DNA of 64,000 nucleotides, from NCBI GenBank assembly GCA_035626675.1, contig DASPNH010000202.1:15020-79019 (forward strand), given 5' to 3'. This DNA comes from Candidatus Binatia bacterium. GTDB lineage: Bacteria; Desulfobacterota; Binatia; UBA1149; CAITLU01. The position numbers were made by a program, and so were the translations under genes. Every line of letters starts with the position of its first letter. Position 1 is the stretch's first letter. This document shows, in pieces, positions 41,910 to 45,995 of this stretch. The notes beneath the pieces were generated by a model. It saw only the letters and a list, made by a program, of their open reading frames with translations, made no database searches and was not told where the DNA came from.

Positions 41910-43697
41910 ATGCGCTTCCCGCTCCAGGCCCGCTACACGCTGGCCATCGGCGGCCTGGTCTTCGTGGCCCTTACCGTCCTGTGGATCGGCATGACCATCC
42001 GCAACCGGTCCTTCACCCGCGAGCTCGAGCAAGCCACCTCCAAGACCATGGCCGCGACGCTTCAGCGGCGCAGTGAAGACCAGGCCATGACCATCGCCAC
42101 CAATCTGGCCAAGCGTCTGACCACTGCCGTTGCCAGGAAAGACCTCCCTGCCATCGAGAGGCTGCTTGCCGAGACGCGCCGCTATCCCAACGCGCTGTCG
42201 GCCAAGGTCCTGGACCCGCGCGGCATCGTCTTGCACGACGGCACGCCCGCGAACGCGGATGCCGGCAGCGACTTCGGCACGCGCTGGAGCCGCGAGGCTC
42301 TAAAGAAGAAGAAAGCCGTCGTCGCCGTCGAGATGGAAGCATTGCGAGCGTCCGCGCCGATCATGTCGGACGACGCCAGCGTGCTCGGCATTGCGATGGT
42401 CGAGCTCGCGCGCGTCGACAGCATCGCCGAGGTCGACTTCGAGCGCGGCAACCTGCGCCGCATCATCTACGGAGAGTGGCAGGCACTGGCCATCACCGGC
42501 GCCATCACGGGCCTGGCGCTGGTCGGCCTCTCGATGATGGCGGCAGCCATCGTTGCCGAACGCCTGGCCACGCCGATCGGCGAGCTGGCCGAGCGCGCAC
42601 GTGCCATCGGCCGCGGCGAGCGCGACATCCCCGCAGCGTCCAAACGTCGCGACGAGCTCGGCGATCTCGCGCGTGCCTTCGACGAGATGGCCGCGGCGCT
42701 CAAGTCCACCACGGTCTCCAAGGACTACGTCGACAACATCCTGCAGTCGATGGCCGAGATGCTGGTGGTCACCGACGAGCAGGGCCGCATCGTGACCGCC
42801 AACAACGCCTTCCTTGCCGAGATCGAGGCCGACGAAGCTTCCGCCCGCGGTGCTTCGCTGGAACGGTTTCTTCCGGGTCTTTCGACGTTTTCCCAGCCTC
42901 GTCCGCCGCACTTCGAGCTTCACCGGCCCGACGGCACCACCGTTCCGGTGCAGGTATCGGTCACCCCGCTGCGCGAAGGCGCGGGCACCGATGCCGGCCA
43001 CGTCTACGTCATGCAGAACGTGGCCGAGCGCCTGGCGGCGAGCCGCCAGATCGAGCGCTCGCTGCGCGAGAACGAGATCCTGCTCAAGGAGATTCACCAC
43101 CGCGTCAAGAACAACCTGCAGATCATCTCGAGCATGCTCAGCCTGCAGGCGGCGCGCACCGACGACCGCCGTGCGCGCGCGGTGTTCATCGAGAGCGAGA
43201 GCCGCATTCGTGCGATGGCGCTGATCCACGAGCAGCTCTACCGATCCGGCGACCTGGCGCGCGTCAACATCGGCGAGTATCTCGAGAATCTCAGCCGGCA
43301 GATCGCGCGCTACCTCGGACGCCTGGACTGCCGCGTCGAGATCGCCTGCGACTTCCAGGAAGTGCCGGTCGACGTGGCCATTCCGTGCGGGCTGATCGTC
43401 AACGAGCTGGTCACCAACTGTATCCAGCACGCCTTCCCGGACGGTCGCGCCGGCACGGTCAGCATCTGGTTCACTGCCAGCAAGGGGCAGCGCGTGCTGA
43501 TCGTCAGCGACGACGGCGTGGGCGTGTCGCCCGACGTGGATCTGGAATCGGGCGCCACGCTCGGCCTGAAGCTCGTGCGCGCGCTGTCGGATCAGCTCGG
43601 CGGGCGCCTCGAGATCATCAACGACAACGGTGCGACTTTCCGCATCACTTTCCCGGCCAAGGACGAGAGCGGCGGGCGCCAATCGCGCGCTGCATGA
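41910..43697 (+). CDS. Membrane HAMP-PAS sensor histidine kinase (HisKA_2 type)
   Basis: Two TM segments, HAMP (RRDELGDLARAFDEM), PAS, LLKEIHHRVKNNLQII, NELVTNCIQHAF, SDDGVG. Confidence 0.9.
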   Translation: MRFPLQARYTLAIGGLVFVALTVLWIGMTIRNRSFTRELEQATSKTMAATLQRRSEDQAMTIATNLAKRLTTAVARKDLPAIERLLAETRRYPNALSAKVLDPRGIVLHDGTPANADAGSDFGTRWSREALKKKKAVVAVEMEALRASAPIMSDDASVLGIAMVELARVDSIAEVDFERGNLRRIIYGEWQALAITGAITGLALVGLSMMAAAIVAERLATPIGELAERARAIGRGERDIPAASKRRDELGDLARAFDEMAAALKSTTVSKDYVDNILQSMAEMLVVTDEQGRIVTANNAFLAEIEADEASARGASLERFLPGLSTFSQPRPPHFELHRPDGTTVPVQVSVTPLREGAGTDAGHVYVMQNVAERLAASRQIERSLRENEILLKEIHHRVKNNLQIISSMLSLQAARTDDRRARAVFIESESRIRAMALIHEQLYRSGDLARVNIGEYLENLSRQIARYLGRLDCRVEIACDFQEVPVDVAIPCGLIVNELVTNCIQHAFPDGRAGTVSIWFTASKGQRVLIVSDDGVGVSPDVDLESGATLGLKLVRALSDQLGGRLEIINDNGATFRITFPAKDESGGRQSRAA

Positions 43698-43707
43698 AGG
43701 GGAACGC

Positions 43708-45441
43708 ATGAAGGCGGTTCAGCTCAACACCGATACACTGGCCAGGATCCTGGTCGTCGAGGACGAAAGCATCGTCGCGGTCGACATCGCCTCGCGGCTC
43801 GAGCGCATCGGCTACCAGGTGGTCGGCACCGCTCGCACCGCGCAGGCTGCCTATGAGCTCGCCGACAAGCACCGGCCCGATCTCGTGCTGATGGACGTGC
43901 GCATCGAGGGCGAGGAGGACGGCATCTCGGCCAGCGTGCGCATCCGCAACGACTTCGAGATTCCGGTCGTATTCCTGACCGCCTATGCCGACGGCGAGAC
44001 CATCGAGCGTGCGCGCGAGGCTGCGCCGCTCGGCTACATCATCAAGCCGTTCGACCAGCGCGATCTTCAGGTCACCGTCGAGCTGGCGCTGCATCGCAGC
44101 CGCATCCATCAGCAGCTTCGCAAGTCGCGCGACGACCTGCAGGCGATCCTGGACGTGCAGCGCCAGGGCACCGTCCTGACCGATCCGGACGGCACCATCA
44201 CGTTTCTTTCGCAGGCCGCGCACGCCCTGCTGCGCACGACACCGGACTCGGGCGTGGGCCAGCGCTGGCAGGAAGTGTTCCCGCTCTCGATGAGAGAGCG
44301 CGAGGAATTGGAGAAGGTTTCGGCAGCGCCGCAGGACTCACGCGAAAAGGTGCTGGTGCAGCCGCAGGTGGCCGGCACCGAGGGTCTGTCCGTCGAGGTC
44401 GAGATCAAGGACGACGTGCGCACCGAGGGCGCGCGCATGTTCTTCCTCTACGACGTCTCGCGCGTGGTCAGCCTGGAGCGAATGCTGGGAGAGCGCGCAA
44501 GCTTCGGCAACATCATGGGACACAGCGAGAGCATGCAGCGCGTGTTCATGCTGATCCGCGACTTCGCAACGATGGAAGCTCCGGTGCTGGTCGATGGCGA
44601 GACCGGCGTCGGCAAGGAGCTGGTGGCGCGTGCAATCCACGAGGCCAGCCCGCGCAGCGCCGGACCGTTCGTGGCCGTCAACTGCGCGGGACTGAGCGAA
44701 GAGCTGGCCGCCAGCCAGCTGTTCGGTCACGCACGAGGCGCATTCACCGGCGCCGTCTCCGAGTATCAGGGCCTGTTCCGCGCCGCGCATCGCGGAACGC
44801 TGTTCCTGGACGAGATCGGCGAGCTTTCGCCGCGCGTGCAGGCCACGCTGCTTCGCGTGCTCGAAGAGCGCGTGGTGCAGGCGGTCGGCAAGACCAAGGG
44901 CGAGCCGGTGGACGTGCGCGTGATCGCGGCGACCAACCGCAGCCTGTCGCGCGAAGTCGATGCCGGAAACTTCCGCGCCGATCTCTTCTATCGCATCCGC
45001 GCCGCAACGATCACGCTGCCGCCGCTTCGCGAGCGCAAGGACGACCTGCTGATCCTGGTCCGCCACTTCCTGGAGGAGCAGGCGGCCGTTTCGGGCAAGC
45101 CGGTGCGCGGCCTTGCCACCGACACGATGCGCATCCTTCATCTGTACGAGTGGCCCGGGAACGTGCGCGAGCTTCGCAACGCAGTGGCGGTTGCCACGGC
45201 GCGCTGCCGCGGCACGCTTCTTCAGCCCGAAGACCTGCCCGCCGAAGTCGTCGACGGCGCGACCAGCTCGGCCGCCGTTCCCCGCGGACCGCTGGCGGCG
45301 CGGCTCGAGATCCTGGAGGCGCTGGACCGCGCCGGCGGCAATCGTTCCAAGGCCGCGCAGCTCCTGGGCGTCAGCCGCGCCACCTTCTACCGGCGCCTGA
45401 CCGCGCTGGGAGTTCCGATCCAGGATTCATCGGACCTCTGA
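43708..45441 (+). CDS. Sigma-54-dependent response regulator (REC-PAS-AAA+-HTH)
   Basis: ILVVEDE...PDLVLMD REC; GETGVGKE, GAFTGA, LFLDEIGE, FRADLFYRI, WPGNVREL; Fis-type HTH GNRSKAAQLLGVSRATFYRRL. Confidence 0.93.
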   Translation: MKAVQLNTDTLARILVVEDESIVAVDIASRLERIGYQVVGTARTAQAAYELADKHRPDLVLMDVRIEGEEDGISASVRIRNDFEIPVVFLTAYADGETIERAREAAPLGYIIKPFDQRDLQVTVELALHRSRIHQQLRKSRDDLQAILDVQRQGTVLTDPDGTITFLSQAAHALLRTTPDSGVGQRWQEVFPLSMREREELEKVSAAPQDSREKVLVQPQVAGTEGLSVEVEIKDDVRTEGARMFFLYDVSRVVSLERMLGERASFGNIMGHSESMQRVFMLIRDFATMEAPVLVDGETGVGKELVARAIHEASPRSAGPFVAVNCAGLSEELAASQLFGHARGAFTGAVSEYQGLFRAAHRGTLFLDEIGELSPRVQATLLRVLEERVVQAVGKTKGEPVDVRVIAATNRSLSREVDAGNFRADLFYRIRAATITLPPLRERKDDLLILVRHFLEEQAAVSGKPVRGLATDTMRILHLYEWPGNVRELRNAVAVATARCRGTLLQPEDLPAEVVDGATSSAAVPRGPLAARLEILEALDRAGGNRSKAAQLLGVSRATFYRRLTALGVPIQDSSDL

Positions 45442-45551
45442 TCGCTGCGGCGGCGCGAGCTCGAAGCCAAAGCGTGGTGCGTTGACGCCTGATGACGCCG
45501 CGGCGCTGACGGCGCGGGCTCCGTTCGTTGAGCCTCCGAACAGCCTCACGC

Positions 45552-45612
45552 TGTCTCAAAGTGTCTCGCCGATAAGTCGCCGAGACAGCCACGATACACG
45601 TTCGCTGAGACA
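45552..45612. promoter_or_regulatory. Upstream activating sequences (enhancer) for a sigma-54 promoter
   Basis: TGTCTCA 45552, TGTCTCG 45562, CGAGACA 45581, CGATACA 45592, TGAGACA 45606; 45562/45581 form a perfect 7-bp IR with a 12-nt spacer. Confidence 0.65.
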
Positions 45613-45642
45613 TCACTCCGTCGAGGCGGCCAGCTTGGCAGC

Positions 45643-45655
45643 CAAACAGCTGATT
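45643..45655 (-). promoter_or_regulatory. IHF-like binding site
   Basis: Minus strand AATCAGCTGTTTG fits WATCARNNNNTTR, lies between the UAS and the promoter, and has an adjacent A/T tract. Confidence 0.5.
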
Positions 45656-45692
45656 TTGCAGCAGTTTATTATTCGGGAGCTGCGAGCCGGCT

Positions 45693-45708
45693 CGGCACGA
45701 CAAATGCT
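45693..45708 (+). promoter_or_regulatory. Sigma-54 (RpoN) -24/-12 promoter
   Basis: CGGCACGACAAATGCT: GG at 45694-45695 and GC at 45706-45707 (GG-N10-GC); predicted +1 near 45719-45720. Confidence 0.7.
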
Positions 45709-45718
45709 CTAGAGCTAT

Positions 45719-45995
45719 CAGCGGCGAGGCCGCCAGGAGAAACGAGGGAGAGGGAACGGAGCGCGTGCACGGCGCGCTCCGAAGGATCAACGCAACGAAA
45801 CGAACAGGACTCTGAGCCGTAGGACCAGTCCCCCAACGCTACGGCTCACGTCCGCACTCACTCCCCCCGGGGGGCTGCGGACAGTGAGGCCCGGCGCTCC
45901 AAGGCCAGAGGGGCGCCGGGCGCTTCCCACAAGCTGAGGGGACAGGCACCGGCTACCCGCAATAGCCGGACCGCCTGTCCCCTTTCGCATTTTTA
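45719..45995 (+). ncRNA. Candidate sigma-54-dependent regulatory small RNA
   Basis: Starts at the predicted RpoN TSS; six hairpins separated by GGA- and A-rich single strands; ends in a hairpin plus T-rich tract; no convincing ORF. Confidence 0.55.

Follow-up and report, generated by a model that had tools for sequence, protein, structure and literature searches.

What does a two-component system of the sigma-54 type control when the gene of its activator is followed by an enhancer, a sigma-54 promoter and a highly structured segment of DNA? This question is raised by a locus in a 64-kb stretch of a Candidatus Binatia bacterium genome (64,000 nucleotides of contig DASPNH010000202.1), referred to here as the window. 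Binatota (Binatia) are a globally distributed uncultured phylum that has been discussed for methylotrophy and alkane degradation (PMC8262859), and no paper on regulatory RNAs is among those listed by our literature search on Binatota/Binatia. A preliminary description, made from the letters of the window, had proposed that the locus resembles CbrAB-CrcZ in its layout and produces an undescribed small RNA (sRNA) that acts as a sponge for CsrA or Hfq/Crc. Comparison with related loci leads to a partly different answer. The locus very probably contains an independent sRNA gene driven by sigma-54 and the neighboring activator, and we regard it, with moderate confidence, as a signaling module whose direct output is a base-pairing regulatory sRNA.

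The protein components and promoter elements of this module, in their order along the window, are as follows.

41910-43697, plus strand: sensor histidine kinase gene with the Pfam domains sCache_3_2, HAMP, PAS, HisKA_2 (HWE type) and HATPase_c; likely start codon ATG at 41910.
43708-45441, plus strand: gene of a sigma-54 enhancer-binding response regulator (the activator) with the Pfam domains REC, PAS, Sigma54_activat (3.6e-65), AAA_lid_14 and HTH_8.
45552-45612, no strand assigned: enhancer (upstream activating sequence) in which two direct TGTCTCR half-sites precede three inverted YGA(G/T)ACA half-sites, from motif scan and conservation.
45643-45672, no strand assigned: AT-rich bend or element resembling an integration host factor (IHF) site, between enhancer and promoter.
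45693-45708, plus strand: sigma-54 (-24/-12) promoter cGGCACgacaaaTGCt, with GG at 45694-45695 and GC at 45706-45707.

The domain order that the preliminary description had read from the two proteins, a HAMP-PAS kinase and a REC-PAS-AAA+-HTH activator, is borne out by Pfam. The translated activator carries the Walker A motif GETGVGKE and the GAFTGA loop, so that the protein encoded next to the promoter is an enhancer-binding protein with a complete AAA+ domain, GAFTGA included, and a helix-turn-helix (HTH) domain; its top relatives in the PDB are ZraR, NtrC1 and LuxO. The predicted phospho-acceptor of REC is the D of DLVLMD, near residue 63. The kinase shares 45-51% identity with the kinases of related loci. 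Because no NCBIfam equivalog passes the cut-off for either kinase or activator, the pair belongs to no named system.

The promoter elements noticed earlier were likewise recovered. Motif scanning places the five TGTMTCR half-sites at 45552 and 45562 on the plus strand and at 45581, 45592 and 45606 on the minus strand. They are 5 of the 13 matches in the 64-kb window and all fall within 61 bp; since the total of 13 lies below the chance expectation of 22.8 +/- 5.6, it is the clustering of the motif, not its count, that constitutes the signal. Between enhancer and promoter, AATCAGCTGTTTG matches the IHF consensus WATCAR-N4-TTR on the minus strand (45643-45655), and the 20-mer beginning at 45653 has 15 A/T positions in DNA of 66% GC. 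The RpoN box itself has the correct GG-N10-GC spacing, and no other sigma-54-like box of the window is preceded by two or more half-sites.

Such an arrangement recurs at the loci of close relatives of the activator. These relatives form a tight group with 62-68% identity, whose named members are Candidatus Binatia or, under an older label, Deltaproteobacteria bacterium. Enhancer, spacer, sigma-54 box and RNA stand in this order, downstream of the orthologous activators, at ten other distinct loci (L001, L042, L043, L044, L049, L050/51, L052-54, L077, L079 and L080); an eleventh, L068/L073, has only the RNA and a sigma-54-like box. The enhancer layout, spanning 56-70 bp (usually about 60), recurs in nine of the ten promoter-module loci, and in L052/L053 the two direct half-sites are kept while the inverted ones are degenerate. 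The spacer is constant at 80-85 nt and includes an AT-rich patch (11-17 of 20 positions A/T) in all 11 loci, with the strict IHF consensus satisfied in only two of them. The promoter box of the relatives reads TGGCAC-N5-(T/C)TGCT. In the promoter alignment A4, the columns GTCTC, GT.TC, GAGAC, GAGAC, GGCA and TGC are invariant and the sequence in between has diverged, a pattern that, read from aligned sequences, is a phylogenetic footprint. A promoter with -24 GG and -12 GC and an upstream enhancer is thus conserved in the window and ten related loci. Transcription is predicted to start near 45719, and synthesis of the RNA would depend on the activator and on RpoN.

The segment that follows the predicted start consists, in the window, of five parts.

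45719-45812, plus strand: lineage-specific 5' extension with hairpins at 45721-45733 and 45757-45781 and with purine-rich and A/C-rich linkers.
45813-45848, plus strand: stem-loop 1 (SL1), a 10-bp stem with the C-rich apical loop GGACCAGUCCCCCAACG.
45850-45882, plus strand: stem-loop 2 (SL2), a stem with the C-rich loop CUCACUCCCCCC, followed in the window copy by GGGGGG.
45888-45921, plus strand: stem-loop 3 (SL3), a GC-rich hairpin of 12-13 bp whose loop, GGCCAGA, is conserved; an intrinsic terminator in relatives.
45937-45995, plus strand: window-specific extra hairpin (45937-45983) followed by UUUCGCAUUUUU, the candidate terminator of the window copy, with no counterpart in relatives.

All six stems outlined beforehand fold as described, and the 277-nt segment has a minimum free energy (MFE) of -140.4 kcal/mol against -113.5 +/- 5.4 in shuffles (z = -5.0). 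Orthologs of the segment, which the preliminary description had named as a check, exist at eleven other loci, and the three core hairpins covary among them. The alignment A2 comprises 12 distinct RNA sequences, for which the RNAalifold consensus has 34 pairs in the three helices SL1, SL2 and SL3. In this alignment, 96.3% of the cells form a standard pair, compared with 33-48% when the 3' partners are slid by 1-3 columns. Both partners have changed in 19 of the 34 pairs, compared with 9.9 +/- 1.7 pairs in shuffles (none of 500 reaches 19), and the covariation score is 0.433 against 0.219. Both-side changes affect 6 of 10 pairs in SL1, 5 of 11 in SL2 (98.5% of cells pair) and 8 of 13 in SL3 (99.4% of cells pair). 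The plus strand is the transcribed one, because G-U pairs fix it. Searched with a covariance model of A2, each locus shows a single copy, on the plus strand only, with 119-143 bits in the relatives; the window copy scores 89.6 bits (45805-45937), the lowest value among the members, and the model finds nothing else in 64 kb. A metagenome scan with a degenerate DNA pattern derived from SL2 and SL3 returned 21 loci, 19 of which are chance matches in coding DNA; only L068 and L073, near-identical with 1 mismatch in 9.4 kb, are real. A scan of viral contigs gave no match.

The family occurs in two forms. In most relatives the RNA is about 130 nt long, judged by its predicted ends, and SL3 followed by U5-U8 serves as the terminator. 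Short-form members (7 of 12) begin about 20 nt before SL1 and have no 5' extension; long-form members (the window, L001, L077, L049 and L068) carry one. Within the long-form clade the extension has a mean column identity of 64%, so that its rough two-hairpin layout is kept but not its sequence. The window transcript is predicted to be about 275 nt long, with both ends placed by reading the sequence. It is likely that the extra hairpin and UUUCGCAUUUUU terminate it. A simple scan for sigma-70 promoters and terminators across 45300-46300 called nothing; this terminator was missed because its stem and loop exceed the limits of the scan.

Is this RNA a gene in its own right, or part of one? The intergenic region between the activator and the next gene, which encodes an enoyl-CoA hydratase (ECH), is 673 nt long (45442-46114), the ECH start being at 46115 and not at 46116 as first given. 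In favor of a cis-acting 5' leader or attenuator, or a sigma-54 promoter serving ECH, ECH does follow on the same strand in the window, L042, L043 and L044; the window SL3 also has no U-run, and the distance from the final terminator to ECH is only about 120 nt. Elsewhere, however, the neighbor changes: seven loci (L001, L049, L050, L073, L077, L079 and L080) have a convergent glutathione S-transferase (GST) gene on the other strand, and L052 has an unrelated open reading frame (ORF). Both ECH and GST possess TTGACT-type promoters of their own near their starts, that of ECH being conserved 30-40 nt before the ATG. The RNA of the relatives ends in a 13-bp GC-rich stem and U5-U8, and the window copy, too, ends in a long hairpin and a U-run. 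The enhancer-sRNA unit of L044 is set apart from the activator by two intervening genes and therefore moves as a block. With the downstream gene varying and the relatives carrying a terminator, a leader of ECH is very unlikely.

A small protein, or a repetitive or mobile element in place of an RNA gene, is more improbable still and hardly worth entertaining. Short ORFs do exist in the window copy, the 16-codon GTG ORF at 45765-45815 among them, and palindromes of the GGGG(N)CCCC kind that resemble repetitive extragenic palindromic (REP) elements lie nearby. Yet that ORF falls in the non-conserved 5' extension, no ORF is shared by the RNA members, and L042 has none of at least 15 codons. The C-runs in the loops are 5-12 nt long across the members, a range that no reading frame would survive. 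For want of a shared ORF, the coding hypothesis was rejected. As for a repeat, the element occurs once per locus and nowhere else in 64 kb, and compensatory pair changes are the signature of RNA. At the level of compared sequences, these observations establish the RNA as an independent gene, neither leader nor coding sequence, together with the module, its promoter architecture and the structure of the RNA.

How would such an RNA act? The loops of SL1 and SL2, both built on [A/G]ACC-N-UCCCCCC, keep their sequence while the stems covary. The SL1 loop reads GACUUAACCGUCCCCCCAAA or (CU)GACCAUCCCCCC, overall GACC[A/G]UCCCCCC, and the SL2 loop reads CUGACCUCCCCCCC or CCU(C/U)A(U)CCCCCCC, overall ACCUCCCCCCC. 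In partition-function folds the predicted probability that the C-runs are unpaired is 0.8-1.0, apart from SL2 of the window; the window SL1 run has a value of 0.93. The family thus has conserved, predicted-unpaired C-rich regions of the type that serve as seeds in base-pairing sRNAs. ACCUCC, present in the short-form SL2 loop, forms the core of the 16S rRNA anti-Shine-Dalgarno (anti-SD) sequence. Folding was also used to examine whether the G-rich part of the 5' extension is an internal anti-seed for the C-loops, and neither MFE nor partition-function folds gave support for it.

The lengths of the C-runs vary even between very close sequences. L052 (5935-5943 and 5978-5989) and L053/L054 come from different samples and share 99.87% identity across 8.6 kb; their loops have C9/C12 and C10/C11, respectively, and these length changes make up two of only 4 gap openings in the whole alignment. 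They reflect either slippage-prone tracts or homopolymer sequencing error.

Conserved, predicted-unpaired, C-rich loops speak for pairing with G-rich targets and not for a protein decoy made of GGA or A-rich segments. Translational repression through pairing with G-rich or Shine-Dalgarno (SD) regions is favored because the loop design is that of base-pairing sRNAs and the nearest Rfam models, all below threshold, belong to such sRNAs. In the resulting model, a signal would be perceived in the periplasm by the sCache-HAMP-PAS-HisKA_2 kinase, which would phosphorylate the REC-PAS-AAA+-HTH activator. The phosphorylated activator would bind the array of TGTCTCR / YGAGACA half-sites, about 60 bp long, and looping of DNA over the AT-rich, IHF-like spacer of 80-85 nt would allow the sigma-54 promoter complex to open and the sRNA to be made. 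The sRNA would then act in trans, its C-rich loops pairing with G-rich or SD regions of mRNAs and blocking translation. The steps up to sRNA synthesis are modeled on conserved anatomy and established knowledge of enhancer-binding proteins; for the pairing mechanism, the targets and the signal, we infer. That the sRNA works by loop-to-mRNA pairing has, in our estimation, a slightly better than even chance.

The main competitor is a protein sponge or decoy, in which the RNA would titrate CsrA through GGA, Hfq/Crc through A-rich segments, or a protein recognizing the C-rich or GGCCAGA loops. CrcZ, CsrB/RsmZ and GlmY act as decoys or sponges, and CrcZ and GlmY are themselves sigma-54-dependent. 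In the window copy there are 10 GGA as well as a linker rich in A/C, and two near-identical loop motifs together with a conserved terminator loop would suit multivalent binding of a protein. The GGA- and A-rich linkers emphasized in the preliminary description are indeed present in the window, but they are neither enriched over dinucleotide shuffles nor conserved. The window count of 10 GGA compares with 7.7 +/- 1.9 in such shuffles (83 of 500 reach it), and the 94-nt extension has 6 against 4.1 +/- 1.4. Relatives have 1-6, the seven short forms 1-4, and in none of the 12 members is GGA enriched. The GGA-/A-rich segment itself is absent from 7 of 12 members, restricted to one clade and poorly conserved there. 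Covariance models of CsrB, Rsm and CrcZ gave no match in 45400-46200 even at E <= 10, and two C-rich sites are far fewer than typical sponges offer. A tblastn search with E. coli Hfq, CsrA and IhfA as queries matched nothing in the window or in any of the loci, a result that is uninformative at this scale. Sequestration of CsrA or Hfq/Crc by the linkers was therefore dropped, and a sponge of any of these kinds appears unlikely.

Several points weigh against a base-pairing sRNA as the output of this module. The window copy is the most divergent member and could work differently: the C-run of its SL2 is unpaired with a probability of only 0.53, against 0.80-1.00 in relatives, being half sequestered by the adjacent G6, and its SL3 is without the U-run. 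The C-rich loops could equally be a motif bound by a protein. The SL3 loop GGCCAGA (45900-45909 in the window) is kept in 11 of 12 members while its stem covaries; such conservation is unusual for a plain terminator loop and could mean that the RNA has a third functional site, contacted by a protein or by a kissing partner. Target searches were of little help. An RNAduplex scan of the start regions of window ORFs yielded uniformly strong energies in GC-rich sequence and no discrimination, and no complementary G-run was found in conserved neighbors (64 kb and about 10 kb per relative). An exact search for anti-loop motifs retrieved mainly the antisense strand of the sRNA itself and one SD-like GGGGGAGGT before a hybrid kinase gene, in L050 only. 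The lineage is uncultured, and the circuit is predicted from comparative evidence. Finally, no kinase, activator or half-site cluster occurs within about 12 kb of the sRNA of L068/L073.

This last locus deserves a closer description. The orphan sRNA of L073 (8555-9289; the same in L068) is preceded by the sigma-54-like box TGGCAC-N5-CCGCT and lies about 420 bp from a tRNA-Thr(CGT) gene, a tRNA species that also flanks the window locus. Because this sRNA exists without two-component genes, its link to the activator is not obligatory. In L049, only a 95-aa ORF is found between the tRNA gene and the activator, where other loci have the full-length kinase. It seems that the two-component genes decay while the sRNA persists.

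A more far-reaching proposal joins several of these observations. The activator would have the sRNA as its only sigma-54 target, the poly-C/ACCUCC loops would mimic the anti-SD sequence and affect, instead of a small set of mRNAs, strong G-rich ribosome-binding sites in general or else a protein that binds poly-C, and slippage-prone C-runs would tune the activity. The tuning part draws on runs that span 5-12 C and on the two tracts that both differ between 99.9% identical contigs. We consider this combination speculative and rather improbable; if true, an uncultured phylum would possess a global governor of translation that is controlled by a signal and tunable by length.

Probably the activator also has a binding site in front of its own operon. 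The motif that had been noticed before the kinase gene is present as a second cluster.

41846-41873, no strand assigned: three half-sites, GAGACG-N5-GAGACA-N4-GATACA as read on the plus strand, about 40-60 bp 5' of the kinase start.

A related half-site pair, TGAGACAGTG(G)TGAGACR, precedes the operon of solute-binding protein and kinase in L042, L043, L044, L050, L052, L079 and L080. No sigma-54 box follows the cluster or the pair, which suggests a putative autoregulatory site. In most relatives a gene of a PhnD-like solute-binding protein lies directly 5' of the kinase; it is absent from the window. AioXSR is a system in which sensing is helped by a binding protein, and by analogy the gene order suggests binding-protein-assisted ligand sensing.

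Beyond the tight group, the next activators (about 53% identity; L045-L048) come from Planctomycetota (Thermoguttaceae) and similar sources. These loci were considered as family members and excluded, since they have the kinase-activator pair and lack enhancer, promoter and sRNA. In L046 (1886, minus strand) and L047, a sigma-54-like box, GGCATGATGGTTGCA, faces a divergent SBP_bac_10 (DUF1559-type) gene and not an sRNA. This sister group seems to control protein-coding genes.

Other features surround the module. Between tRNA-Thr(CGT) (40941-41016, minus strand) and the kinase, the window has a FitA-like ribbon-helix-helix antitoxin gene (41503-41751, minus strand) and a PIN-domain toxin gene (41078-41506, minus strand) overlapping by 4 nt; this cassette looks like an insertion beside the tRNA, because most relatives have the PhnD-like gene at that position. 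Directly 3' of ECH, at 47120-48814 on the plus strand, lies a gene of a GmrSD-type restriction endonuclease of modified DNA (GmrSD_N 3.7e-34, GmrSD_C 8.4e-17), absent there in related loci. REP-like palindromes that follow the pattern GGGG(A/T)C(N)G(A/T)CCCC, for example AAGGGGACGGTCCCCTT and GGGGTCTGACCCC, are intergenic around the module: at 45996-46014 in the window, at 5745-5805 and 7320-7385 in L044, and at 5720-5790 and upstream of 2175 in L050, where they form arrays. Two loci have tandem repeats. In L043 (6133-6262), the stretch that separates the sRNA terminator from the promoter of ECH holds a repeated 51-bp unit (2.5 copies, 98% matches) with one TGTCTCG half-site per unit; these half-sites could be extra activator sites before ECH, or a coincidence. 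In L001 (4056-4208), a 60-bp unit (2.5 copies, 90% matches) lies between the stop codon of the activator and the enhancer, directly adjoining the former.

How does this module relate to known systems? At gathering thresholds, Rfam 15 recognizes only tRNA-Thr in the whole window, and in a permissive search the only near models are families with C-rich loops, all below threshold. By layout, PxrK-PxrR(Nla19)-pxr of Myxococcus xanthus (Rfam RF01812) is the closest known system, closer than the CbrAB-CrcZ arrangement to which the locus had first been compared and whose order, an sRNA gene after a sigma-54 two-component system, is conserved in the relatives. Pxr is an sRNA with three stem-loops, conserved SL1 and SL2 and a functional SL1 loop (PMC5568312, PMC5684412). 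Both systems share the order of kinase, NtrC-like sigma-54 regulator, sigma-54 promoter within an intergenic stretch of about 260 nt, and three-stem-loop sRNA of about 110-130 nt (PMC5568312, PMC5684412), and in both there are long and short RNA forms. Homology between the two is not detectable, however: the Pxr model scores 17.4 bits on the minus, that is the wrong, strand of the window, against a gathering threshold of 80, and gives no match in six relatives. The activator described here has an extra PAS domain, the kinase is of the HisKA_2/HWE type, the term "C-rich" does not occur in the Pxr paper that was searched, and the host belongs to another phylum (here Binatota).

In Pseudomonas, CbrAB-CrcZ also places the gene of a sigma-54 two-component activator directly before an sRNA gene. 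CrcZ depends on an enhancer, IHF and RpoN, and CbrA has a transporter-like sensor domain, unlike the sCache-HAMP kinase of this locus. The CbrB regulon is the subject of PMC6296734. CrcZ differs in being an Hfq/Crc decoy with repeated A-rich motifs; none are conserved here, the A/C-rich linker being confined to the long-form extension, and the CrcZ model (RF01675) has no match at E <= 10 in 45400-46200.

In LuxO-Qrr (Vibrio), NtrBC-NrsZ (Pseudomonas), GlrKR-GlmY (Enterobacteria) and DVU0679-Dv_sRNA2 (Desulfovibrio), the adjacent sigma-54-dependent sRNA is the main or only direct target of the regulator. The gene of DVU0679 is immediately followed by its target sRNA (PMC3333781). All four resemble the present case in combining an enhancer-binding regulator with an adjacent sigma-54 sRNA, but their sequences, structures and effector mechanisms are unrelated, and their Rfam models give no match. 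CsrB/RsmZ are comparable as structured non-coding RNAs under two-component control, and the window copy has several GGA; they differ in that GGA is neither enriched nor conserved here, the promoter is of the sigma-54 type and not GacA/UvrY-dependent, and no model matches.

In effector design, the nearest relatives are 6C (RF01066), the CcsR1/ar14 "CCUCCUCCC" RNAs (RF02791, RF02344), ar7 (RF02342) and RsaE/RoxS, which likewise have two unpaired C-rich, anti-SD-like loops and a terminator. The 6C, CcsR/ar14, ar7 and RsaE-type sRNAs pair with G-rich or SD regions. Their models stay below threshold: 6C reaches 19.4 bits in the window and 29.8 bits in L043 (threshold 47), CcsR1 23.5-25.9 (65.3), ar14 19.9 (58.8) and ar7 21.2-34.8 (60). 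We know of no 6C, CcsR, ar14, ar7 or RsaE family reported with a sigma-54 promoter and a cognate enhancer-binding protein, and the resemblance is most likely convergent.

Taken against these systems, the sRNA family is undescribed, as had been supposed for this lineage, being absent from Rfam 15, and the kind of layout is already known. The locus is a testable circuit with sensor, activator, enhancer motif, sigma-54 promoter and covariation-supported sRNA. The A2 alignment and its model could seed a new RNA family, and the TGTCTCR motif could be used to map the regulon of the activator in metagenome-assembled genomes. As an independent further case of an enhancer-binding-protein gene followed by its own sigma-54-dependent sRNA, it couples the regulator-sRNA layout of Pxr and CrcZ to the C-rich-loop, anti-SD-like effector design of 6C and its counterparts.

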